Part shown: in pieces, positions 8,205-55,547 of the stretch
Layout: the number at the start of each line of letters is the position of its first letter
Position numbering within the stretch: position 1 is the first letter of the stretch
From: Escherichia virus TH47
Sequence record: MT446416.1
Direction: 5' to 3' (one strand)
Length of the DNA stretch: 64,000 nt
Notes under the pieces: generated by a model
Database searches by the model: none
Seen by the model: the letters and a program-made list of their open reading frames with translations, nothing else
Told to the model about the DNA's origin: nothing
Position numbers and translations under genes: made by a program

Positions 8205-8618
8205 AATAATCTCTACTGTAATTAATAAGGTAAACTCCAATATAAGGAGCACGTTCGCGGCGGGGTATTTTTTTTTGTTTAAGGAAACATGCCCTGTACT
8301 CTGAAAACACATTTTAAAACTTTATATTAAACATATACCTTAACATGTTTTTCAGCGAAAATTTTTTTACCCCCCCCTCCTGTGGCCTGTGAAAACGAAA
8401 CGTCTCTATTTATTCAGCCTAGAAAGCTTGATTTCTTCAATCCTTTTCATCGCACAAAGCCTTAGACTCGTCTTCTCGTATATATATTCAATACTCGTTG
8501 TACTGCATTATCTGTATTATCTGTAACTGCAATCTGAACCAAATATGTATCCTTCAAAATCGAATCCATCATGTATTCAAAACCTTTCACACTATAGCAA
8601 TACACCACTTCCGGCTCT

Positions 8619-27304: not shown

Positions 27305-27700
27305 TTAGATAACCTGTCGGCGTTTACTGAATACAGTAACACTGTTTCCCTTGCGGTCGTGGCGGATCTCTCGTTGGTTGCGAATCAGTACACTTGGACG
27401 CTTCAAGTTAGCCAGATGATCCGCGTGAGTCCATGCATTCGAATTTACGGAAACTTTAATATCAGAACCCGCGACGAATTCATCTTGAGCGTTAAGAATT
27501 GCCGCCAGTTCTTCAGCTTGTTTTTGTTCTGCTGCTGTCAGTACTGGCTCAGGTGAATTCACAATATCAGAGATTTCTTTGAACTGTACGGCCCAGCGTT
27601 GGCCTTTCGGTGCATCTTTGCCCATGTCTTTAAATAGCTCACCTTCCTCGCGTGCAACAATACGGGCAGCTTCACGGGTAGCGTAGAATTTAGTAATCAT
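27305..27700 (-). CDS. hypothetical protein (paralog of 39218-39481)
   Basis: shared segments ATREAARIVA...FKDMG...RWAV...HDRKGN-VTV. Confidence 0.5.
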   Translation of the reverse strand: MITKFYATREAARIVAREEGELFKDMGKDAPKGQRWAVQFKEISDIVNSPEPVLTAAEQKQAEELAAILNAQDEFVAGSDIKVSVNSNAWTHADHLANLKRPSVLIRNQREIRHDRKGNSVTVFSKRRQVI

Positions 27701-27795: not shown

Positions 27796-28119
27796 TTACA
27801 TGTCTTTCTTACGTTTTACATCGTAGTAGCGAACTGTTATTTCTTTGTTAATCTCTTTTTCGATGCGGTGAATAACTTTTTCTTTCGGGTTGAAACCTAT
27901 AACGGTTTCTTTAATGATCTCCAAACCAGTGTATTCGCCTTGCGTACCGTAACCGTATGTAAAGGTTTCGTGTCCCAGGTCTTCCCAGCGGTCGCCAATT
28001 AACGCAGACACGTAGCAAGAGTGGTAAGTATTGCCGTTCCGATCAGTCCAGCGATTAACTTTAATGTCAAAGGAGGTTACAATTTTCAGTTCTACTTTCT
28101 GGGTAAGGATCATAGCCAT
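27796..28119 (-). CDS. hypothetical protein (paralog of 34364-34708)
   Basis: shared YGYG motif and C-terminal DVKRKKD[ML]. Confidence 0.5.
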   Translation of the reverse strand: MAMILTQKVELKIVTSFDIKVNRWTDRNGNTYHSCYVSALIGDRWEDLGHETFTYGYGTQGEYTGLEIIKETVIGFNPKEKVIHRIEKEINKEITVRYYDVKRKKDM

Positions 28120-29777: not shown

Positions 29778-30134
29778 TTACGATAAAATCATGATAGGAT
29801 ATTCACTATCGATCAGTACTTCGAATCCAAAACCTTCGTACCATTCTTTAAGATTAAAGGCGTTATCTTCTCCCGTATCGCATTCTAAAATGATACAATC
29901 GGAATCATCAGCGGCATCAATAAAGGCATTCATTAATTCGTTACCTTCACCATTGCCCCGACTATCAGGATCAACATAAAGAGAATCAATAAACGCTACA
30001 CGGTCATAATCAAGATCCGGTGCAATGATTCCACGTTTTTCAAACCAGTACTGCAATTGTGCTACTTTGCCCTGTACTTGATAGCCAGTGATCTCGCCAT
30101 TGTCAGTAGTACGCGTGATATGTTGTATTCCCAT
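29778..30134 (-). CDS. possible GNAT-type N-acetyltransferase
   Basis: 118 aa; segment VDPDSRGNGEGNELMNAFIDAA resembles acetyl-CoA-binding motif A; weak. Confidence 0.35.
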   Translation of the reverse strand: MGIQHITRTTDNGEITGYQVQGKVAQLQYWFEKRGIIAPDLDYDRVAFIDSLYVDPDSRGNGEGNELMNAFIDAADDSDCIILECDTGEDNAFNLKEWYEGFGFEVLIDSEYPIMILS

Positions 30135-31320: not shown

Positions 31321-31572
31321 TTATACGGGCTGTACCGCCAGTGTATTATCTGTTATAACCTGGTACATAACTTTTACAGTACTGTATGCTTCTTTGATGC
31401 TTAGCCCTTGAACTACAGGGACTTCATCAGCACCACCAGGAAGGGTACGCGAGATAACCAGTTTATCATTTTCTGAATGTACACAGTAACGATAGGTCAT
31501 CTGGCGACGGGCTAACGCATCATTCAAGTACTGTAAGTGGCGTTCTACGTTCTCGCGAGTAATACGGGTCAT
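31321..31572 (-). CDS. hypothetical protein
   Basis: start MTRITRENVERH at 31570-31572. Confidence 0.45.
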   Translation of the reverse strand: MTRITRENVERHLQYLNDALARRQMTYRYCVHSENDKLVISRTLPGGADEVPVVQGLSIKEAYSTVKVMYQVITDNTLAVQPV

Positions 31573-31608
31573 GATTGTTTCCTTAATAGTGTGGACTTGA
31601 TAAAACTT

Positions 31609-31636
31609 ATTATACAGTACTATCAATCTTTGTCAA
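31609..31636 (-). promoter_or_regulatory. consensus sigma70 promoter TTGACA-16-TATAAT
   Basis: -35 31631-31636, -10 31609-31614 on minus strand, upstream of 31321-31572. Confidence 0.55.
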
Positions 31637-31655
31637 TAGTACTGTGATAATATTT

Positions 31656-31868
31656 TTAGTTAATGATAGTCAGTGTAAAATTGTAATCCCCTGCCTGGTA
31701 TAGTACTTTGTCGCCGAACGTACCAACACGTTTCATATTGCAATAGATACCCATAACACTTTTTACATCTTTGATATTCCGAACGCCTGTGATATCCTTG
31801 TTGAAATTTTCATGATCAGAAAATAAAACTTGTTTTGCATTTTTCAGTACAGTGCAGATATTAGCCAT
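31656..31868 (-). CDS. hypothetical protein
   Basis: 70 aa. Confidence 0.5.
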   Translation of the reverse strand: MANICTVLKNAKQVLFSDHENFNKDITGVRNIKDVKSVMGIYCNMKRVGTFGDKVLYQAGDYNFTLTIIN

Positions 31869-37863: not shown

Positions 37864-38475
37864 TTAATATGCGATTGATTCTACTACGCCATCAATAACA
37901 TTGAATTGATATTCGTTACCCTCAATCAGTGCCGTAATGTTTTCAGTAGTGAATTGATCCTTATATGCATTCTCTAAATCACGGTAAAACTTGCGTGACA
38001 ATTCACGAATAGTATCAGTTAGTAGTTTCTCAAGCTCATTAACTAACGTTTCTTGTTTTGAGGTTAAATCAGTGTAAGCCGATTCAATGTACCCGCTTAC
38101 AGTGTTCTCATGCGAGTAATGGGAGTGAGATCGCTTTACACTCATCGCCAAATCATCTTCATTCAGCAGGTGACGGATTGAGCGATACTTAGTTAATGCT
38201 CTTACCTTGCGTAAAAACTTCACTGCGTCAACGTGGTCAGTACTGATTGATGCACCGTCACCCTGGGACCAAAAACCACTGAATTGTATTTCAGCGTCAT
38301 TAATGCCATATTCTGGTAGTACTGTTTCTTTATAGTATTCAATTTCACTTTCAGAAAAATAATCGTCGTTTGTGTTTTTTTCACGTTCCCGAACCAGTTC
38401 GATAGCTGACGTTTTTTGTTCTGCGTTCAATTCAGAAAAATCCATAACATAAGTAGTAGTAGTGATAGTTTTCAT
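37864..38475 (-). CDS. hypothetical protein
   Basis: 203 aa; GAGGG RBS. Confidence 0.55.
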   Translation of the reverse strand: MKTITTTTYVMDFSELNAEQKTSAIELVREREKNTNDDYFSESEIEYYKETVLPEYGINDAEIQFSGFWSQGDGASISTDHVDAVKFLRKVRALTKYRSIRHLLNEDDLAMSVKRSHSHYSHENTVSGYIESAYTDLTSKQETLVNELEKLLTDTIRELSRKFYRDLENAYKDQFTTENITALIEGNEYQFNVIDGVVESIAY

Positions 38476-39562: not shown

Positions 39563-39790
39563 TTACATTCCAACCATCGCCGCACGCACGCTTGATTTGC
39601 TATAACGTGCCCCATCAGGCGTGTGAGTACCTAAAAGGCGTAACATCCGCTCAACCGCTTTATCTCGCGTGTTGGTGCTTTTAATACTTTCCAGGGCCAA
39701 TTGGTACAGTGATTCATCGTTATTGATCCAAAGGCTTACATTCCAATGGTTGTAGTTTTTATGGCCGTTGAAAGTTTTAGTAGTAGTCAT
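39563..39790 (-). CDS. hypothetical protein (paralog of 37535-37774)
   Basis: 75 aa. Confidence 0.5.
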   Translation of the reverse strand: MTTTKTFNGHKNYNHWNVSLWINNDESLYQLALESIKSTNTRDKAVERMLRLLGTHTPDGARYSKSSVRAAMVGM

Positions 39791-40246: not shown

Positions 40247-40380
40247 CGTTTTTAATCTCTCTTAAAGTGCAGCGGGAACCATTCCCGCTCTCGATGTAAT
40301 ACATTATACGCCGTTAAACATAGTATGCAAGTACTTTCTACAAATACTTTTAAAATAGTTTTCTTTCTATATAGGGGAAC

Positions 40381-40436
40381 TATCTTTCAGTACTATCTTT
40401 CAGTACTATCATTCAGTACTATCATTCAGTACTGAA
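40381..40436. repeat. four tandem 12-13-bp repeats (TTCAGTACTATCWT)
   Basis: ctttcagtactat x2, cattcagtactat x2 read directly. Confidence 0.7.
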
Positions 40437-41060: not shown

Positions 41061-41175
41061 ATTTAGCCGTCTATACTTCCAGACGTGTAACCATCTAGCC
41101 GTTTAGCCGTCCAAACGTCTAGCCATCCAGCCATCCAGAAATCTAGCCGTTTAGCCGTCTAGATGGATAGCCATC
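41061..41175. repeat. iteron-like direct repeats (TAGCCGT / TAGCCAT / CCAGCCAT)
   Basis: at least 8 copies of 7-8-bp units within ~115 bp, locally GC-richer. Confidence 0.6.
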
Positions 41176-42109
41176 TTTACTTCCATACTTCTGGAGGTCT
41201 AGACATATCTACGTCCAAAATCCACCCAGGGTTACTACACCCAAAATCCGTCAGTACTATACCATAGATCTATCTTTTGAAAGGGAGTATTCAGTACTGC
41301 CATCATAGCCCTCACTATGTTACCCTAGGAGGATGAAGACTATCATGTAGTACTGAATACTGTTAGAGGGAATCCACCAGCTTGTGCTGGTGGCATAATG
41401 CTTTAGATTAAAATCAGTACTGACACCATTCTGTTAATATCAGTACTGTTATTACGATTTTCATATGAGGTTCAAAAAGATGTACCACCACAGGAGGAAC
41501 TATCTTTTCTGTACTGTCTCACGACAGGAGGTAGAGTAAATGAATTGTTCGCAGCAACTCATCTCTCTATGTAGAACATTATACAGTACTGAATCATAAT
41601 GTCAATAACTTTCTTTCACCATTCAGTACTGATATTCTTGAGAACTACCCGTCTACAAACATCATTATATCCCACAAATCATAAACGTCCCAACGTAAAT
41701 TTCAACTTTCGAAGATCCAACTTTTATTTCATAGGTACTCCAAAATTTTTAGGATCGAGATTTAGGATGGAGTACTAACCAACTTTTTGCTGGAGCCTCA
41801 AGGGGTAATTGAATTTTACCCCGAAGGGTAAAAGGGTAATTGAAATTAAGGTGAAAGTAATAATTCAGTACTAATCATTGCGTGATTACTTTTGATTACA
41901 TTTGATGTAATTTGCAAAATGGAAAAGGAGCTTGGAAACTAAAAAGTACGGTAGACTTCCTCTGCCTACTTAGTGGGATATCGACACCTTCAGTACTGAA
42001 TACTTTTGGGGCAGTACTGCTACGTTCTTGATTAAACGTGCACATTCCTGTACTCTATTACACTCTAGTACTCACTACTGATCAGTACTGATCACTACAG
42101 TGATTATAA

Positions 42110-42157
42110 ATGATTACTTAAATGTTTATATATGATTACTTATGATTACTTATGACA
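42110..42157. repeat. tandem ATGATTACTT repeats
   Basis: three to four copies read directly. Confidence 0.6.
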
Positions 42158-46352: not shown

Positions 46353-46455
46353 GTACAGTTCTCCTTATATTCCTTCTATAGTACACCAGTACTGAAAGGA
46401 TGTCAAGGGTTTTGTTTATGGGGTAAATATGATATAATGAATAAAGGAGGGAAAT

Positions 46456-47577
46456 ATGTTACCTTTTGTTAGAATGTTTGATTATGGAAATGAAGCACCT
46501 GATCCTAGTTCGGGATTTCGAATAATAAGTACAGGAGACGCATTACTATTAATTACTGAGAGTGGTGATTTGTGGGTGCGTGGTTATAACCGTTATGGCA
46601 AGTTAGGTATAGGTAATAACACCACTACCTATGTACTTGATTGGACGAAGGTTAGAAGTGATGTGAAGTTTGCGTGTGGTAGTGGATTGGTAACAGTTAT
46701 CTTTACTAAGGATAATCGTATATTGTACTGTGGTGACAAATGGTTTGAAACGGGTGGTGTTGGTAGTGCACAGATTTTCACATGGACAGATGTTACGCAC
46801 CAATTTGGGGTAGTAGATTTGAGTACAGTAAGGGATATGAAAATGTCTTATTACACGATTGGATTATTGACTACTAATAATCAATTATACGCTAAGGGAT
46901 TTGATAATAACCTATCATTTGGTGGGGTTACTAATAAGGCGACTGCTGTGTTTATTGCGAATAATGTACAAGAGTTGTATACGAGTTTAGTTAGTACTAT
47001 CTACGTTGATACAAGTGGTATATTACATCGTTGTGGCATGAGTGATAACGGTTCGTTGGGTAATAATGGTAGTTTAACTTCGTATCTAAGTTATTCACAG
47101 CCTGGTATGACGATTAAGGACATTGGAATGATGACTACGAACACTGGGTTATTATATACTGATTCTAGTGCACGCACGAGATATTTTATTGCTGGACAGA
47201 ACTTGAATAAACAGATGGGTAATGCGGCGTCTGCGAGTGCCATTACGAGTACTTACACAGAGCTTTCTGGTAGTGTTGATAAGTTTTCTTCTTTATGGGA
47301 GAATGATGGGATATTGATGACATTTGCTGTGGGTAAGAACACTAATCAGTTATTTTATGCTGGGACGAATACTTTTCATGCGAGTGGTGGTGAATCTTCA
47401 TATGCGGATACATATGAGTTAGTCCCGATGGTGTTTAATGACATACAGGAAGTGTTATGTGCACAGCGTTTATCGGTGGTACATGATTCTACGAAGTGGT
47501 ATTACTGTGGTGATGCTAATTCAATGTATGGTTTACCGGACGTAAGTACTTTTACTGAGTTACCGTTGCCCTTTTAA
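46456..47577 (+). CDS. RCC1-like repeat (beta-propeller) protein, FamD copy 1
   Basis: N-term MLPFVRMFDYGN; repeats GYNRYGKLGIGN etc.; AGGAGGG RBS; TATAAT 46434-46439. Confidence 0.8.
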   Translation: MLPFVRMFDYGNEAPDPSSGFRIISTGDALLLITESGDLWVRGYNRYGKLGIGNNTTTYVLDWTKVRSDVKFACGSGLVTVIFTKDNRILYCGDKWFETGGVGSAQIFTWTDVTHQFGVVDLSTVRDMKMSYYTIGLLTTNNQLYAKGFDNNLSFGGVTNKATAVFIANNVQELYTSLVSTIYVDTSGILHRCGMSDNGSLGNNGSLTSYLSYSQPGMTIKDIGMMTTNTGLLYTDSSARTRYFIAGQNLNKQMGNAASASAITSTYTELSGSVDKFSSLWENDGILMTFAVGKNTNQLFYAGTNTFHASGGESSYADTYELVPMVFNDIQEVLCAQRLSVVHDSTKWYYCGDANSMYGLPDVSTFTELPLPF

Positions 47578-47585
47578 TAATAGGT

Positions 47586-47615
47586 CAGTACTGAAATATG
47601 TACTGGTATTTTTTG
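47586..47615 (+). terminator. intrinsic terminator hairpin + T-run
   Basis: CAGTAC-N8-GTACTG followed by TTTTTTG. Confidence 0.55.
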
Positions 47616-47654
47616 TAAATACTATATAATTATTTTAATTTTGGAGATTTAATC

Positions 47655-48824
47655 ATGTTACCTTTTGTTAGAATGTTTGATTATGGGAATGTAGCACCTG
47701 CACCACCGAAATTTAAAAAAATACTCACCAATAACTACAACGTTGCAGTTTTAACAAGCAGTGGGGATTTATATGTACGTGGGAATAATCAAAACGGTCA
47801 ATTGGGTTTAGGTCACAAAGAAAAAGTTACTACATGGACGTTTAGTACTTCTGGTGTTCAAGATTTTTGGTTTGGTAGTTCAACACTAGTGGTTAAAAAA
47901 ACCGATGATGAAATATGGTACAGTGGACAGTCAACCTCTGTTGGTATGCCAGGGGCATCTGTATCGGGGTGGACTTCTGCCATGCCGACATTCAATACAT
48001 TAACATTACCAATATTAGATATGGCAGTTAGTAATCAGACTACAAGTGTATTACTATCAGACCGAACAATATGGAGTACTGGGGTAGGAAGTAATGGTCA
48101 ATTGGGTAATGGAACTGCGACGAACAACATTTCAGGTAAATTCGTCAAAAGTACTGTTTCGACAGAAGAAGAACAATTACCAGTTAAATTGTTTGCCAGT
48201 AATTTAATGCATGGATATGTTACCGAGAACGGCTGGTTATACTACACTGGGCAACCCAATGCAGTTAGCACTAATGGCAGTGCGGTATATAGTGTTTATA
48301 CTAGTGCTCCTATTAGTCTAAGGAATACCATTAATATCAAGTACTATACAAATAATGGAACTTCGATGGCGATGGCTATTGGTACAGATCCAAATGGTAA
48401 GACCGTACTTGCTAATGGTGGCCCTAGGATATTTGGTGCACAGGCTGACGGAGTAAATGGTCAACTAAGTAATATTAGGCCATTTGCTGTTCAAACCGAA
48501 TCATTGATGCCTCCTGGGGATTTGGTAAGTATTGCTCATAATACTTCATATTATAACCAAGTTATTGCTACAACAGATGGTATATATTGTTGCGGCTACA
48601 ACCAATCTACACACGCTGGTATGTTAGGCATTGGTACATCTACTAACGCATTAGTATATACCAAAGCAATCGTACCTGATGGTTTTGATTATAGTAAATC
48701 GCAAATGGCAGGTGAGTATAACCGTACTTATATAACTGATGGTAATTTTGTATATAGTACAGGGACAGATGTCACATATGGTGGCATTAATAGCTTAGAA
48801 TTTGTAATAGATTCACCATTATAA
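47655..48824 (+). CDS. RCC1-like repeat protein, FamD copy 2
   Basis: N-term MLPFVRMFDYGN; GNNQNGQLGLGH, GSNGQLGNG. Confidence 0.8.
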   Translation: MLPFVRMFDYGNVAPAPPKFKKILTNNYNVAVLTSSGDLYVRGNNQNGQLGLGHKEKVTTWTFSTSGVQDFWFGSSTLVVKKTDDEIWYSGQSTSVGMPGASVSGWTSAMPTFNTLTLPILDMAVSNQTTSVLLSDRTIWSTGVGSNGQLGNGTATNNISGKFVKSTVSTEEEQLPVKLFASNLMHGYVTENGWLYYTGQPNAVSTNGSAVYSVYTSAPISLRNTINIKYYTNNGTSMAMAIGTDPNGKTVLANGGPRIFGAQADGVNGQLSNIRPFAVQTESLMPPGDLVSIAHNTSYYNQVIATTDGIYCCGYNQSTHAGMLGIGTSTNALVYTKAIVPDGFDYSKSQMAGEYNRTYITDGNFVYSTGTDVTYGGINSLEFVIDSPL

Positions 48825-48830
48825 AAAGAA

Positions 48831-48861
48831 AAGCCAGTACTTGATACTGGCTTTTCTTTTT
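48831..48861 (+). terminator. intrinsic terminator (AGCCAGTAC-TTGA-TACTGGCT + T-run)
   Basis: hairpin read directly; same element after copies 3 and 6. Confidence 0.6.
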
Positions 48862-48868
48862 GTATTAA

Positions 48869-48884
48869 ATATAGTATAATGAAT
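48869..48884 (+). promoter_or_regulatory. -10-only promoter-like motif TATAATGAATA (T4-late-like?)
   Basis: TATAAT 48875-48880, ~17 nt upstream of ATG, RBS AAGGAGGG; no good -35. Confidence 0.4.
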
Positions 48885-48897
48885 AAAGGAGGGAATT

Positions 48898-50007
48898 ATG
48901 TTACCTTTTGTTAGAATGTTTGATTACGGGAATATTGCACCTGAAGCTCCAAAGATAAAGAAAGTACTGTGCGGTCGTGATAATTTGTACGTCCTCTATG
49001 GCGATGGCTCACTTTATGGTTGTGGGGATAATGCGTATTTTCAGTTAAACGTTAAAAATGCAGCAACAAGAAATACTTGGATATTAATTTCAGAAGGTGT
49101 TACTGATGTATGGGCTGGGGCGTACAATATTCTTTATCTCAAGGGTGAAGAATTCATAATGCATGGAGTTACCACACAATTAGGCACAGGAGATACTATG
49201 ATTCCGTTGGGTGGTTTGAATGTTACTTCTTCATTTCCACATATATCTAATATTAAAATGATATCAATTGGTGCAGATACAATGCACTACGTTGATGCTA
49301 GTGGTTCGATTGTTTATGGTAGAGGCATGAATGGTAACTATTCACTCGGTGGTGGGTATTCCACGGCTCAGAGTACTTTTGTTTCAGTTATTAATACCGG
49401 AGCTAATACAGTCCTTGATATATTGGGTACACAGAATAACACATTAATATTAACATCAAATGGTGAACTTCTCGGTTGTGGGAGTAGTGGGTATGGTTCA
49501 CTTGGCGTAAGTCCAGGACAGTATACTACACTAGTAAGCAGGTTAACCAGTGTTAAACTGTTTGGTGGTAACAGTACTGGTACTCTTGCTTATTCAGCCA
49601 GCAATATATACAACGCAGGTTGGCAGTATGTTGGTCAACTTGGTAACGGTATTACAACGAACACACTACTATATCCATTTGCATTAAACTCCACTACTAT
49701 TGATAGTAAGATACATAAAATATCAAAATCAAGTACAACTTCACGTGTTAATATGTACGCAACAACCGAAGGAAAGATATATAGTACTGGTGAATTTGGT
49801 AGAAATGGTTCTGGTGGTAGTTTGAGTAGATTCACCAATACACTAACTTTAGATAATTACAACCCAGAAAAATCAGCATTATACACATGTGCAAATTTTA
49901 GTATAGTATTTGATGGTAATAATCAAATTTATGCTTGTGGTTCTTTTTTGTATGTGCCAGGTCCTATTACCACGAACTCATGGTCTGCAATTACAATGCC
50001 GAAATGA
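48898..50007 (+). CDS. RCC1-like repeat protein, FamD copy 3
   Basis: N-term MLPFVRMFDYGN. Confidence 0.8.
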   Translation: MLPFVRMFDYGNIAPEAPKIKKVLCGRDNLYVLYGDGSLYGCGDNAYFQLNVKNAATRNTWILISEGVTDVWAGAYNILYLKGEEFIMHGVTTQLGTGDTMIPLGGLNVTSSFPHISNIKMISIGADTMHYVDASGSIVYGRGMNGNYSLGGGYSTAQSTFVSVINTGANTVLDILGTQNNTLILTSNGELLGCGSSGYGSLGVSPGQYTTLVSRLTSVKLFGGNSTGTLAYSASNIYNAGWQYVGQLGNGITTNTLLYPFALNSTTIDSKIHKISKSSTTSRVNMYATTEGKIYSTGEFGRNGSGGSLSRFTNTLTLDNYNPEKSALYTCANFSIVFDGNNQIYACGSFLYVPGPITTNSWSAITMPK

Positions 50008-50021
50008 TACTATAAAACTAT

Positions 50022-50050
50022 GCCAGTACTTGATACTGGCTTTTCTTTTT
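50022..50050 (+). terminator. intrinsic terminator (GCCAGTAC-TTGA-TACTGGC + T-run)
   Basis: read directly. Confidence 0.6.
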
Positions 50051-50085
50051 GATTAAATATAGTATAAAGAATAAAGGAGGGAATT

Positions 50086-51243
50086 ATGTTACCTTTTGCT
50101 AGAATGGTTAAGTACGGAAATAGAGTTCCAGTACCTGTTGGGATTAAGAAGATAAACTCTGTCGGTACTAGTCAGATGATATTGACGAATACAGGCGACG
50201 TGTATGCATATGGTCAAAACACCAACTGGAGATTTGGTAGTGGTAGTTCTAGTGAGATTAGTGGGGGAGTTCCACAGATGGTAATGCAGGGTGTATCGGA
50301 TATGATATGTCATCCCAGATGTACATTATTAATAATGTCTGATGGACGTTATCTTGCTGCTGGGAACTCTACAGTACTGGGAGGTAGTTCAGGATTGAAT
50401 TATGTAGATGTTAGTTCTAAGTTCGCTACATTAGGAACTATCAAGAAAATTGATTTTACCCGAAGGAACAGTACTTCGTATACAGTATATGCATTAAACA
50501 CTGATGGTGATTTATATGGTATTGGATATGGAAACCGTGGTCAATTGGGGTTAGGTAAAAATAATAGTTTAGGTGCATTTACGAAGATAAACACCAATTG
50601 CAGGAATTTTGTAAGTTGTTCTTATGAGACGATAGTGGCTCTTAAGAATGATAATACTGCGTGGTTCTGTGGAAATTATTCGTTTATTAGTGGTAATACT
50701 GATGTTACTACATTTACTAACCTTGGTGATACTGCAATACTTAATATCTACGGTAATGGTTTAAATGGTGAGTTGTTATACACAAAAAGTGATGGTTTAT
50801 ATTTCCGTGGTTTAGCGTCGAACCGATATGGTTATTCATTCAGTTTAGAACAGCGTGCAATTAATAGCAAGATTACATTGCCGTTTGCTTATGATGTAAG
50901 TACGTTTAAGATTCTCACAGATGAACAGACAACAACCGTCAGTGTGTGGATTTCCAATTCAGACGTTCATTATGGGGTTGGTGCAAATAGCAGTAACACT
51001 AACAGAATGGGATTCACCAACCCAACTATGCCAGGTGCTGGTTCAAACTTTACATTACAGGATTTCAGTTCAGTGCAGGGCACTATTGAGACTGTTGTTA
51101 GTGCAAGTTATTATACAACTCTTATAAACTCTAATGGGAAAGTATTTGGCAGTGGGCCTTTTGATGATGATTCTTTAACTTATTTTCCTGGGAATAATCC
51201 AAAACTGATGAACTACACAGAAATTAAATTGAATATAAATTAG
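50086..51243 (+). CDS. RCC1-like repeat protein, FamD copy 4
   Basis: N-term MLPFARMVKYGN; GYGNRGQLGLGK. Confidence 0.8.
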   Translation: MLPFARMVKYGNRVPVPVGIKKINSVGTSQMILTNTGDVYAYGQNTNWRFGSGSSSEISGGVPQMVMQGVSDMICHPRCTLLIMSDGRYLAAGNSTVLGGSSGLNYVDVSSKFATLGTIKKIDFTRRNSTSYTVYALNTDGDLYGIGYGNRGQLGLGKNNSLGAFTKINTNCRNFVSCSYETIVALKNDNTAWFCGNYSFISGNTDVTTFTNLGDTAILNIYGNGLNGELLYTKSDGLYFRGLASNRYGYSFSLEQRAINSKITLPFAYDVSTFKILTDEQTTTVSVWISNSDVHYGVGANSSNTNRMGFTNPTMPGAGSNFTLQDFSSVQGTIETVVSASYYTTLINSNGKVFGSGPFDDDSLTYFPGNNPKLMNYTEIKLNIN

Positions 51244-51255
51244 GAGAGAATAATT

Positions 51256-52416
51256 ATGTTACCTTTTGCTAGAATGGTTAAGTACGGAAACATTGCACCA
51301 TCCCCTGCTGCCATTAAAAAATTAGTTACCGGATATAACTGGGTTATGGTATTGGGTAGTAATGGTAAATTATATACCCGTGGTGCCAATTCAAGTGGTC
51401 AGTTGGGTTTAGGAGACAATACAGCCAGAACATCATGGACATTAACTGCATCGGATGTCATTGATGTATGGTGTGGTCAGTATGCCACAATGATTCACAA
51501 ATCAGATGGTACATATCAATACACAGGGAAACAATACAATGTGTGTATGGGTACATCATCTGTTAATGCATGGACTTCTATGCAAACTCTTATTAATCAA
51601 GTTAATTCTCAAGGAACAATTACAGAAATATCACTAGGAAATAACTTCATTTCAATACTTATGAGTAATGGGACCATTTGGTGTGGTGGTTATAACACAG
51701 GAGGACAGCTTGGCAATGCTTCTTATTCTAACAGTTTTACTACATTAGTAAAATCAATTATACCAAGTGGTGCGGTTCCGAAAAGGATTATTGCAGGTAT
51801 AAACATGTGTTCATTTATTGCCGAAAGTGGTAGATTATATTACACAGGTGAAGTTAATGGTGATACTAACAGTACTTCAACCGTGAGTTTTTATAATGTA
51901 TTCACATTGTCAGATAGATTACCAGCAACTGTTAGTACTATAGCATTTATAAGTACTGTTAATGATATGGTGCAAGGTATTGCAAGAAACAAAAGCACGT
52001 CAGTTGTTTCAGTGTACACAGGTGGTGATCAATTATATGGACAGGCTGCTACTGGTACTGATACTACAACAAAAATATTGACAACTGTTGTGGCAAATCA
52101 ACCACAAGGAAATATATTAGATATAGGATATGGGTACGGATATTACTCTAACTTTGTTATTACTGACACAGGTGTATACGTTGCTGGTAATAACTCAGCG
52201 ACTTCATACTATGGACAATTAAGTACAGGTTCAACTACTAACGTATTAACTTACACTAAGTCTATTACTCCTGATTTAAATTTCAATGATGTTAAAATCC
52301 AAAGTTGCTATGGTAAAACATATATGACAGATGGAAACAAAATATATTCAAGTGGTACTAACCTAGTATCTGGTGGTACTGCTAGTACTATATTTGTTGA
52401 AGATTCACCAATTTAA
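51256..52416 (+). CDS. RCC1-like repeat protein, FamD copy 5
   Basis: N-term MLPFARMVKYGN; GANSSGQLGLGD, GYNTGGQLGNAS; no terminator between copies 4 and 5. Confidence 0.8.
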   Translation: MLPFARMVKYGNIAPSPAAIKKLVTGYNWVMVLGSNGKLYTRGANSSGQLGLGDNTARTSWTLTASDVIDVWCGQYATMIHKSDGTYQYTGKQYNVCMGTSSVNAWTSMQTLINQVNSQGTITEISLGNNFISILMSNGTIWCGGYNTGGQLGNASYSNSFTTLVKSIIPSGAVPKRIIAGINMCSFIAESGRLYYTGEVNGDTNSTSTVSFYNVFTLSDRLPATVSTIAFISTVNDMVQGIARNKSTSVVSVYTGGDQLYGQAATGTDTTTKILTTVVANQPQGNILDIGYGYGYYSNFVITDTGVYVAGNNSATSYYGQLSTGSTTNVLTYTKSITPDLNFNDVKIQSCYGKTYMTDGNKIYSSGTNLVSGGTASTIFVEDSPI

Positions 52417-52422
52417 AATAAT

Positions 52423-52450
52423 GCCAGTACTCTGTACTGGTATTCTTATT
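52423..52450 (+). terminator. intrinsic terminator hairpin
   Basis: GCCAGTAC-TCT-GTACTGG followed by T-rich tract. Confidence 0.5.
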
Positions 52451-52486
52451 TGTATTAAATATAGTATAATGAATAAAGGAGGAATT

Positions 52487-53623
52487 ATGTTACCTTTTGC
52501 AAGAATGGTTAAGTACGGGAATATAAAAGTAAAGAGTACTATCCAAAAAGTTATCCTTGGTGGTGGTGGTCAATGTGTGGTAACATTACTCAGTGATGGT
52601 AGAGTGTATGGACGTGGTTACAACACTACACATGGGTTAGGTACTGGTACAACAACATTCGTAAGTGATTGGGTATTAATGGGCGATAATATTGTTGATA
52701 TCCATTCAAATGGTGTTCCTGGCACATTCCTTATCACCAAAGAAAATAGAATTTTGTATTCTGGTTGGGCGACACCAATCAATGGTACAACTGCACATTA
52801 TACACGTTTCACTGATTTAACATCAACTGTATTTGCTGCGGTGGATGTTAGTAATATTAAAACAATTACTGGAAATATTAATGCTACAATGGTCCTGTTG
52901 AATGATGGTTCTCTTTATGGTAGTGGTGCAAATACAGGTGTTATTGGTAATGGTAGAAATGTTGCATTATCAACACAAACATATGTAACTAATGATGTGA
53001 GAGAAGTAAAAACATATGGATCCATGACTACTATAACAAAAAATAACAATCAAATACTGGGTAGTGGTCTTTTATACCACGGCGTGAACGGTACAAATTC
53101 AATAATAAACACGTCTTCATATACATTACTGTACACATTACCGAGTTCTGATTGTTTTCAATTTGCATTTGATGAATATACATTTGGATATGTTGACCCT
53201 AGCACTAATACTTCTTATATAAGAGGTATACCAATAAATGGTTCATTGGGTAATGGTGTTACTAATAATACAGCAGTTACAACATGGGTTACTAAAGTTT
53301 GGAATACACCAATTGATAGTTCTATACCTAATAAATCACATACACTTAACCATGTCTCCTTGTTCAATGATGGAAACTTATGGACAACTGGTGCATCTAA
53401 TGTCGGTTATTCCAATGGTACAAATAGCACAACAGCTAATACTTGGACCAGTTCATCTAATTTACCATTCAACACCAATAACATCACAGACTATGCGTTG
53501 GGTAGTAATATTACTGTGGTGGTAATCGACTACAGGTCTATGTACATACTAGCTAACAACTTAATTGCTGGAACTACATCAACCACTTACAAATTTGAGC
53601 CATATAATTCTCCACCAGTTTAA
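52487..53623 (+). CDS. RCC1-like repeat protein, FamD copy 6
   Basis: start MLPFARMVKYGN at 52487 after AAGGAGG; track N-extension from 52373 rejected. Confidence 0.75.
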   Translation: MLPFARMVKYGNIKVKSTIQKVILGGGGQCVVTLLSDGRVYGRGYNTTHGLGTGTTTFVSDWVLMGDNIVDIHSNGVPGTFLITKENRILYSGWATPINGTTAHYTRFTDLTSTVFAAVDVSNIKTITGNINATMVLLNDGSLYGSGANTGVIGNGRNVALSTQTYVTNDVREVKTYGSMTTITKNNNQILGSGLLYHGVNGTNSIINTSSYTLLYTLPSSDCFQFAFDEYTFGYVDPSTNTSYIRGIPINGSLGNGVTNNTAVTTWVTKVWNTPIDSSIPNKSHTLNHVSLFNDGNLWTTGASNVGYSNGTNSTTANTWTSSSNLPFNTNNITDYALGSNITVVVIDYRSMYILANNLIAGTTSTTYKFEPYNSPPV

Positions 53624-53629
53624 TATAAT

Positions 53630-53659
53630 GCCAGTACTTGAGTACTGGCTTTTCTTTTA
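53630..53659. terminator. bidirectional hairpin terminator between convergent genes
   Basis: GCCAGTACTTGAGTACTGGC + TTTTCTTTT. Confidence 0.55.
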
Positions 53660-54307: not shown

Positions 54308-54385
54308 GAGTGCCTCAATTAAATTGCTGTAAAATTGTACGTTATAAAATGAGTAAATAAAGTATAACACAAGGAGATTTTTATT

Positions 54386-55510: not shown

Positions 55511-55515
55511 AATTA

Positions 55516-55547
55516 ATCCAGTACTATAATAGTACTGGATTTTTTAT
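55516..55547. terminator. bidirectional hairpin terminator
   Basis: ATCCAGTACTATAATAGTACTGGAT + TTTTTT between convergent genes. Confidence 0.6.

Follow-up and report, generated by a model that had tools for sequence, protein, structure and literature searches.

Terminator-promoter cassettes with a TAAATA core, probable T4-type late promoters, precede the RCC1-like genes of Escherichia virus TH47

We examined the sequences upstream of an array of RCC1-like genes in a 64-kb stretch of Escherichia virus TH47 (sequence record MT446416.1; 64,000 nucleotides, hereafter the window). The window derives from an Asteriusvirus-group jumbo coliphage and is 91-95% identical by megablast to vB_Ec-M-J, phAPEC6, 121Q, and relatives. 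Seven RCC1-like paralogs, here designated c1 to c7, lie on the plus strand between 46.4 and 55.5 kb, the rest of the window is made up mostly of small minus-strand genes, and the 64 kb contain no head or tail genes. The array comprises the following genes.

46456..47577, plus strand, c1, RCC1-like, 373 aa, N-terminus MLPFVRMFDYGN
47655..48824, plus strand, c2, RCC1-like, 389 aa, 92% identity to phAPEC6 gp003
48898..50007, plus strand, c3, RCC1-like, 369 aa, 94.6% identity to phAPEC6 gp009 (a virion protein by mass spectrometry)
50086..51243, plus strand, c4, RCC1-like
51256..52416, plus strand, c5, RCC1-like, preceded by neither terminator nor promoter
52487..53623, plus strand, c6, RCC1-like, 378 aa
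54386..55510, plus strand, c7, RCC1-like, 374 aa

A Pfam RCC1/RCC1_2 scan of the array covered c3 and c7, and both exceeded the gathering score (c3, RCC1_2, 40 bits against a cut-off of 22; c7, RCC1, 50.3 bits against 21.7); c3 also matched phrog_4219 at 1.6e-84. The gene bodies of the paralogs share approximately 30% identity as protein and 55% as DNA. The 45 nt upstream of c1, c3, c4, and c6 are 78-96% identical among these copies, and their first 36 coding nt are 81-97% identical; a cassette of approximately 110 nt together with the N-terminal codons is thus much more similar than the gene bodies. Because the upstream identity so exceeds that of the gene bodies, recent duplication does not account for the conservation. 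In all seven genes, the first 12 codons specify a conserved MLPF(A/V)RM(V/F)(K/D)YGN despite the low overall protein identity. Starts of the form MIPF or MLPF are found in other genera as well, including in neighboring genes that lack an RCC1 annotation (a "virion structural protein" in Erwinia phage Hallingskeid and hypothetical proteins in Salmonella phage Munch and Serratia phage BF). By analogy with the internal proteins of T4, the conserved N terminus could be a virion- or capsid-targeting peptide.

Within each cassette the order of elements is terminator, TAAATA-N3-TATAAT, a strong Shine-Dalgarno sequence (AAGGAGG), and ATG. The terminator is a CCAGTAC...GTACTGG stem plus a T-run that closes the upstream gene, TAAATA follows 5-8 nt further on, and the terminator hairpins have z values of -2.1 to -6.3. 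A first-pass annotation of this DNA had flagged TATAAT or TATAAA before c1, c3, c4, and c6; these hexamers are present and end 16-17 nt upstream of the ATG. The elements before c2 and c7 are additions to its list, so that six copies carry TATAAT, TATAAA, or TATAAC 16-24 nt upstream of the start codon. The elements of the array are as follows.

46406-46378, minus strand, early promoter TTGACA-17-TACTAT, divergent from the c1 promoter
46424..46438, plus strand, c1 promoter, GG-TAAATA-tga-TATAAT, the sole extended -10 (TGn); TATAAT at 46433-46438, ATG at 46456
47586..47605, plus strand, terminator-like hairpin CAGTACTGAAATATGTACTG plus T-run, downstream of c1
47616..47630, plus strand, c2 promoter, TG-TAAATA-cta-TATAAT; TATAAT at 47625-47630, 24 nt upstream of the ATG
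48825..48859, plus strand, terminator hairpin AAAGAAAAGCCAGTACTTGATACTGGCTTTTCTTT, -19.5 kcal/mol, z = -6.2
48866..48880, plus strand, c3 promoter, AT-TAAATA-tag-TATAAT; TATAAT, the only part marked in the first-pass annotation, at 48875-48880, ATG at 48898
50022..50040, plus strand, terminator hairpin GCCAGTACTTGATACTGGC, then TTTTCTTTTT, downstream of c3
50054..50068, plus strand, c4 promoter, AT-TAAATA-tag-TATAAA, the sigma70-critical T at -7 replaced; TATAAA at 50063-50068, ATG at 50086
52420..52444, plus strand, terminator hairpin AATGCCAGTACTCTGTACTGGTATT, downstream of c5
52456..52470, plus strand, c6 promoter, AT-TAAATA-tag-TATAAT; TATAAT at 52465-52470, ATG at 52487
53630..53649, plus strand, terminator hairpin GCCAGTACTTGAGTACTGGC, then TTTTCTTTT, downstream of c6
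54354..54368, plus strand, c7 promoter, AG-TAAATA-aag-TATAAC, flanks diverged; TATAAC at 54363-54368, 17 nt upstream of the ATG
55515..55541, plus strand, bidirectional terminator hairpin AATCCAGTACTATAATAGTACTGGATT, the end of the array

A terminator directly upstream of each cassette means that a fresh transcription start is needed for each unit, and each RCC1-like gene or gene pair is probably a separate transcription unit. The pair is c4 and c5: c5 starts 12 nt past the end of c4 and therefore has no promoter of its own, and it is presumably co-transcribed with c4. The recurrence of the cassette sequence is far above expectation, with four occurrences of the 26-mer AAATATAGTATAATGAATAAAGGAGG at up to three mismatches (0.00 expected) and six of TAAATANNNTATAA (0.43 expected), every one of the latter preceding an RCC1 gene. 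When the six upstream regions were aligned, the sole invariant block was TAAATA-N3-TATAA. TAAATA is unchanged in all six promoter-bearing copies, even in c2 and c7 with their diverged flanks, and the vB_Ec-M-J ortholog of the c7 promoter reads AT-TAAATA-aag-TATAAC. The -10 hexamer TATAAT is perfect in four of the six, with the T at -7 lost in c4 (TATAAA) and c7 (TATAAC).

The absence of a credible -35 element, also claimed in the first-pass annotation, was confirmed: the best hexamers (TTTTGT, TTTTCT, and TTCTTA, at a spacer of 16-18 nt) match the consensus at 2-3 of 6 positions, and the -35 region of the cassettes is occupied by the terminator T-run and 3' arm. An extended -10 (TGaTATAAT) is present in c1 and missing from the other five copies. 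Thus, apart from the TGn of c1, the cassettes have neither a -35 TTGACA nor the TGn extension of a sigma70 promoter. The same annotation had contrasted them with full promoters elsewhere, and this contrast is real, as TTGACA or TTGACT separated by 16-18 nt from TATAAT occurs at approximately 19 window genes, 18 of them on the minus strand, with scores of 10.5-12 out of 12 against the sigma70 consensus; several other genes have CTTGCA-17-TATAAT. The near-consensus promoters of the minus strand (TTGACA-16/17-TATAAT, 11-12 out of 12) number almost one per small gene, with examples upstream of 27305-27700, 27796-28119, 29778-30134, 31321-31868, 37864-38475, and 39563-39790, and such a dense series is typical of a host-takeover early region.

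One conceivable use of the TATAAT hexamers would be as -10-only or extended -10 promoters for host sigma70, active early or constitutively, with TAAATA an incidental AT-rich spacer. The consensus hexamer itself, the extended -10 of c1, and the position of the array next to the early-gene region speak for such a scheme. The E. coli extended -10 promoter (TGnTATAAT) is indeed matched by c1, which has TGaTATAAT and no -35, but the other five copies lack the TG, two lack the -7 T, and the -35 matches do not exceed 2-3 of 6.

To compare the cassettes across phages, RCC1-family genes were recognized by their M(L/I)PF start in eight phages (the window, phAPEC6, vB_Ec-M-J, Salmonella SD-15_S21, Salmonella Munch, Erwinia Hallingskeid, Yersinia fHe-Yen9-04, and Serratia BF), and a gene was classed as having its own gap if at least 55 nt lay free upstream of it or if it stood first in the array. 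TAAATA was present in 40 of the 43 own-gap genes, the 40 being all those that were evaluable, and in 1 of the 22 operonic genes; the other three sit at the edge of a locus or are annotated as operonic. Mostly 25-33 nt separate TAAATA from the ATG. The base at -12, immediately before the core, is T in 30 cassettes, G in 10, and A or C in none. The downstream hexamer is TATAAT in 29 of the 40 cassettes, TATAAC in three, TATAAA in two, TATATT in two, and TATTAT in one, and no hexamer is recognizable in three from Eneladusvirus (TTACAA, GATATT, and ATGATT). Eleven of the 40 cassettes thus depart from TATAAT, and the substitutions strike the T at -7. This T is among the most important -10 positions of sigma70 promoters. 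Because TAAATA is kept across genera while TATAAT varies, including at the -7 T, we take TAAATA rather than TATAAT to be the conserved functional element of the cassettes, as judged by sequence comparison. The -7 variants and the loss of the hexamer in other genera, set against an invariant TAAATA, likewise weigh against a promoter read purely by sigma70. An exact-pattern scan of IMG/VR with TAAATANNNTATAATGAATAA returned 116 loci, nearly all of them single chance matches in unrelated AT-rich contigs, and was useless for sampling variants.

The known counterpart of such an element is the T4 late promoter, which has the box TATAAATA at -13 to -6 and is served by the gp55 sigma factor, the gp33 co-activator, and the gp45 sliding clamp. 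The 8-mers of the six cassettes (GGTAAATA, TGTAAATA, ATTAAATA three times, and AGTAAATA) match this box at 6-7 of 8 positions; the TAAATA core, equivalent to T4 positions -11 to -6, matches at 6 of 6 in every case, and each mismatch pattern involves -12, alone or together with -13. Like T4 late promoters, the cassettes combine a single box in the -10 region, no -35 element, and an AT-rich melting segment downstream, the sequence following the box (tagTATAATgaataaa) being A or T at 14 of 16 positions. The first-pass suggestion of T4-type late promoters is supported for the kind of promoter, one with no -35, and fails for the motif, as the matching element is TAAATA, 3 nt upstream of TATAAT.

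By word count, the full T4 box TATAAATA is absent from both strands of the window (approximately 12-15 expected). ATAAATA occurs once (approximately 40 expected) and TAAATA 24 times (approximately 115-139 expected), and 6 of the 16 TAAATA on the plus strand are the RCC1 promoters. The sole ATAAATA (ggctgaATAAATAgagacgtttcgttttcacaggcc) is at 8406-8412 on the minus strand; no gene starts within 90 nt downstream of it, and its sequence is conserved at phAPEC6 309389. As head and tail genes are missing from the window, the consensus analysis was run on the assembled complete genome of phAPEC6 in place of that of the phage itself, and RaK2 was also examined. TAAATA is the most under-represented hexamer of phAPEC6 (230 against 496-714 expected), its one-base neighbors occurring at 0.9-1.7 of expectation. 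All four NTAAATA are depleted, with observed/expected ratios of 0.27 for A, 0.29 for G, 0.41 for C, and 0.53 for T. Restriction-site-like palindromes are also almost absent from phAPEC6 (CAGCTG 2 against 73 expected, ACCGGT 4 against 55, GGCACC/GGTGCC 1 against 40, and GCCGGT 1 against 24), a scarcity that is consistent with restriction-site avoidance.

The ATAAATA sites of phAPEC6 are concentrated ahead of genes. A Shine-Dalgarno sequence and start codon follow within 90 nt at 33 of the 54 sites (61%), against approximately 10% for control AT-rich hexamers in a 70-nt scan. The genes so preceded include those for the major capsid protein, the scaffold, the prohead protease, the baseplate wedge gp244, gp245, and the tail sheath gp277c. 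ATAAATA also stands before three genes for virion proteins that lie within the early region (gp035c, gp037c, and gp077), and CTAAATA or GTAAATA precedes further virion genes (gp228c, gp274c, gp280c, gp306c, gp256, and gp247). With the published mass-spectrometry proteome (PMC7247149) as the virion gene set, a TAAATA in the preceding 100 nt was found for 33 of 55 virion genes and for 52 of 594 other predicted genes (odds ratio 15.6, p = 2e-18). Six of the 33 are RCC1 genes; a hand tally without RCC1 gives approximately 27 of 47 against 46 of 588, the statistic being that for the full set. In the sequence logo, position -13 has no preference, and an A lies 6 nt past the box in 25 of 33 sites, which is the position of the T4 late transcript start (+1). 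The distance from box to ATG at the late promoters of structural genes is 16-64 nt, a range that includes the spacing in the RCC1 cassettes. The RaK2 head genes have the same (A/C)TAAATA, and ATAAATA had been reported before the structural genes of CBB and GAP32 (PMC5259590), so that the consensus published for those phages was recovered independently in phAPEC6 and RaK2. Accordingly, the TATAAT(G)AATA late consensus proposed in the first-pass annotation was not borne out: from the comparison with complete phAPEC6, the predicted late consensus of the phage group is (A/C)TAAATA, T4-like and with TAAATA as its core.

The register implied by that proposal deserves separate consideration. It would make TATAAT(G)A the gp55 box, aligned to TATAAATA, with the transcript starting at the Shine-Dalgarno sequence; TATAATGA matches TATAAATA at 6 of 8 positions and the c4 version, TATAAAGA, at 7 of 8. 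It is extremely improbable, however, as the late consensus needs a TAAATA core, and TAAAGA and other neighbors are not avoided (observed/expected 1.0-1.7). With TATAATGA as the box, only 15 nt would separate it from the ATG, less than the 16-64 nt of bona fide late promoters, and the 5' end of the mRNA would be the Shine-Dalgarno sequence itself. The hexamer is, moreover, not kept across genera. Two other candidates were considered and rejected. TATAAATT at 51231-51238, in the last codons of c4 and 17 nt before the c5 ATG, matches the T4 box at 7 of 8 positions; it was not accepted as a c5 promoter because TAAATT is not avoided (observed/expected 1.0) and the c4-c5 gap is just 12 nt. A T4 middle (MotA-box) promoter, suggested by a loose resemblance of the terminator 3' arm TGGCTTTT to TGCTTtA, was dismissed by inspection alone, given that the distance to TATAAT is approximately 18 nt rather than 12, the arm is variable, a hairpin is missing from c1 and c7, and the annotation lists neither MotA nor AsiA.

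The gp237c protein of phAPEC6 belongs to the late sigma family, matching phrog_234 ("late sigma transcription factor") at 8.4e-18 and phrog_12791 at 3e-154; this identification is by PHROG profiles only, as Pfam and PDB sequence searches gave no match. The gp237c gene adjoins gp46/47-like genes, which we take to be the arrangement around T4 gene 55 as well. The capsid protein of phAPEC6 is a gp23 homolog. Taken together, the avoidance of TAAATA, its placement before virion genes, the gp55-family sigma factor, and the gp23-homolog capsid argue that the family uses a T4-like late promoter. The first-pass annotation had further supposed a virion-associated role for the RCC1-like proteins, and this is supported by the recovery of eight RCC1 paralogs (gp003, 005, 006, 007, 009, 010, 549, and 551) from phAPEC6 virions by mass spectrometry (PMC7247149).

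The strand distribution of promoters in phAPEC6 points in the same direction. The 31 strong sigma70 matches all fall on the minus strand; of 47 plus-strand genes of at least 100 aa, none reaches a sigma70 match of 11 out of 12, and TAAATA is present at 28. The RCC1 genes lie on this plus strand, which in phAPEC6 is devoid of strong sigma70 promoters. In T4, the early and middle transcripts share one polarity (PMC2988020), and late genes occur on either strand with early genes on one, as is likewise the case in phAPEC6. A promoter used by host sigma70 alone is made quite unlikely by these data in combination: the strong promoters of that type are all on the opposite strand, TAAATA is the most avoided hexamer and a marker of virion genes, and the products of the RCC1 genes are virion proteins. 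The searched literature on Asteriusvirus and RaK2-like phages yielded neither transcriptome or promoter studies nor data on transcript 5' ends or timing.

A composite arrangement would give TATAAT a role of its own: a gp55-type TAAATA would overlap a -10 TATAAT serving host sigma70 or the RpoD-like sigma factor of the phage, with low early or middle transcription followed by stronger late transcription. The hexamer is perfect in 29 of 40 cassettes, TGnTATAAT is present in c1 and its orthologs, and phAPEC6 encodes an RpoD-like sigma factor, gp066c, with regions 2, 3, and 4. A TATAA 3-4 nt past the box also recurs at the late promoters of gp077, gp274c, gp231c, gp179c, and gp244. The last feature has another possible origin, however, because T4-type late promoters themselves have an AT-rich, TATA-like stretch past the box (PMC2988020). 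The -35 is missing, TGn is confined to c1, the -7 T is replaced in c4, c7, and others, and Eneladusvirus has TAAATA without the hexamer. We therefore regard the composite promoter as unlikely.

On balance, we consider it probable that the cassettes are T4-type late promoters, of a variant with T or G at -12, set within terminator-promoter cassettes, that the RCC1-like genes are expressed late, and that their products enter the virion. TAAATA would then be the -11 to -6 core and would be read, with no -35 contact, by a phage sigma factor of the gp55 family on host core RNA polymerase. The AT-rich TAGTATAAT would serve as the melting segment, and transcription would start inside TATAAT/TAGTATAAT, approximately 6 nt past TAAATA, to give a leader of approximately 20 nt. 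Recognition by a gp55-like sigma factor would imply late expression alongside the structural genes, with the RCC1 products going into the virion. Head and tail promoters have A or C at -12, and the T or G found there in the RCC1 cassettes probably marks a weaker subclass, which would fit low-copy virion proteins. Variation at -13 and -12 has precedent, since A(-13) variants occur at 9 of 50 T4 late sites (PMC2988020) and positions -13/-12 read (a/g)C in the late consensus of Aeromonas phage Aeh1 (cited in PMC2988020). Aeh1 illustrates that -12 may differ while TAAATA stays, as in the RCC1 cassettes, although its change to C is genome-wide and the T or G described here is limited to one gene family, with A or C in the rest of the genome.

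Several observations weigh against this assignment. The base at -12 is never A or C in the RCC1 boxes, unlike the capsid and tail promoters, and T4-type boxes are reported to adhere tightly to the consensus (PMC2988020). The base at the expected +1 is T, not A. TATAAT is perfect in most Asteriusvirus and Munch cassettes, a conservation that suggests a role of its own for this hexamer, and the extended -10 of c1 could be used by host sigma70. The gp55-like gene lies outside the 64-kb window, its presence being taken from relatives, and the CBB authors did not find homologs of gp33 and gp45 in CBB (PMC5259590), which is also a difference from T4. The mass-spectrometry support for the RCC1 proteins is thin, at 1-5 peptides each (PMC7247149). 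Finally, the presence of TAAATA in all 40 evaluable cassettes does not amount to 40 independent events because the cassettes are related by descent.

Measured against known systems, the cassettes resemble T4 late promoters also in that the box is shunned elsewhere in the genome and precedes head and tail genes (as tested here in phAPEC6 and RaK2) and in the gp55-family sigma factor of close relatives. They differ at -12, which is A in T4 and T or G in the RCC1 cassettes, the structural genes of the phage group having A or C there, and in that the group shows no preference for T at -13. The predicted late promoters of CBB and GAP32, RaK2-like jumbo phages of the same supergroup, have the same core in the form of ATAAATA and an AT-rich tail (PMC5259590); the RCC1 box deviates from them at the first A, is fused to a terminator, and has TATAAT at a fixed 3-nt spacing. 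The CBB paper analyzed structural genes and makes no mention of RCC1 (PMC5259590). Most of this biology would be expected from T4 and the published related jumbo phages, and it can be accommodated without a new mechanism.

Comparison of c1-c7 of the window with phAPEC6 and vB_Ec-M-J shows an RCC1 array whose gene content is mosaic among close relatives. Genes c2 and c3 are adjacent in the window, and their phAPEC6 orthologs gp003 and gp009 (92-95%) are 6 kb apart and without cassettes of their own. No close ortholog of c1, c4, c6, or c7 was found in phAPEC6. In vB_Ec-M-J there are 93-98% orthologs of c5, c6, and c7, and likewise of c1 over the 131-residue part covered by the locus compared. 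The promoter region of c1 is shared with that of phAPEC6 gp549, and the two proteins are different. These comparisons suggest that gene bodies have been exchanged or shuffled around stable cassettes. A decayed RCC1 pseudogene was sought in the 53.6-54.4 kb gap, with no significant tblastn match.

Such exchange raises the possibility that the block is not a promoter at all and is kept alike by gene conversion among paralogs, as a recombination cassette, or through an RNA-level role in a read-through transcript. The far greater similarity of the cassette and N-terminal codons than of the gene bodies, and the apparent swapping of gene bodies between phages while the cassettes stay put, are what this idea would predict. 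It does not explain why TAAATA is invariant despite diverged flanks and across genera or why it also marks virion genes that are not paralogous, and the terminator immediately upstream of each cassette would still demand a new start. Neither Rfam, at gathering thresholds, nor a tRNA search gave a match anywhere in the window, which leaves an RNA-level role without a known family. We judge this explanation highly implausible.

PeSL cassettes of T4-like phages are short conserved units of a stem-loop terminator and a promoter between variable genes (PMC2839356, PMC4122927), and the RCC1 cassettes share their composite build, their repetition between variable genes, and their persistence while gene bodies differ. 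PeSLs carry early (sigma70) promoters, however, whereas the RCC1 cassette has a late-type box without a -35; its conserved unit runs into the first 12 codons, and recombination at the cassettes is something we infer. It is possible, if doubtful, that the RCC1 cassettes form a distinct, conserved late-promoter subclass, [T/G]TAAATA-N3-TATAAT, instead of being simply weak late promoters, and act as a PeSL-like recombination module of approximately 110 nt that diversifies virion-packaged beta-propeller proteins. In that module a sequence-conserved terminator, the box, and the 12-codon peptide MLPFxRMxxYGN would be fused, and T-even phages would offer an analogue in their polymorphic locus for internal proteins and its capsid-targeting peptide.

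Two further sequence features of the region were recorded. The palindrome AGTACT, often as CAGTACTG, occurs at 269 sites in the window against approximately 22 expected from base composition, 70 of them intergenic and 199 within open reading frames (examples are 47586-47605, 48833-48851, and 46395-46388 on the minus strand). With 918 sites, 9 times expectation, it is the most over-represented hexamer of phAPEC6. It builds the stems of the RCC1 terminators, likewise in Salmonella Munch and Erwinia Hallingskeid, and is also found within at least one early-promoter spacer (46406-46378). Tandem repeats lie in the gene-poor stretch at approximately 41.0-44.0 kb and nearby (40379-40433, 41064-41162, and 42089-42155), with units of 13 nt x 4.2 (ACTATCATTCAGT), 8 nt x 12.4 (TAGCCGTC), and 22 nt x 2.4; they may mark an origin or iteron-like region, or else the place where the early region ends.

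A T4-like late consensus had already been predicted for the related phages CBB and GAP32, which limits the novelty of these results. They provide a sequence-based ground for classing the expanded RCC1-like family of Asteriusvirus and related jumbo phages as late and virion-destined, in agreement with published proteomics, and they pin down TAAATA as the promoter element to mutate or map. More than 80% of the genes of jumbo phages are unannotated. As the late signal TAAATA is readable from genome-wide word avoidance, it offers a cheap means for the temporal sorting of jumbo-phage genes of unknown function.

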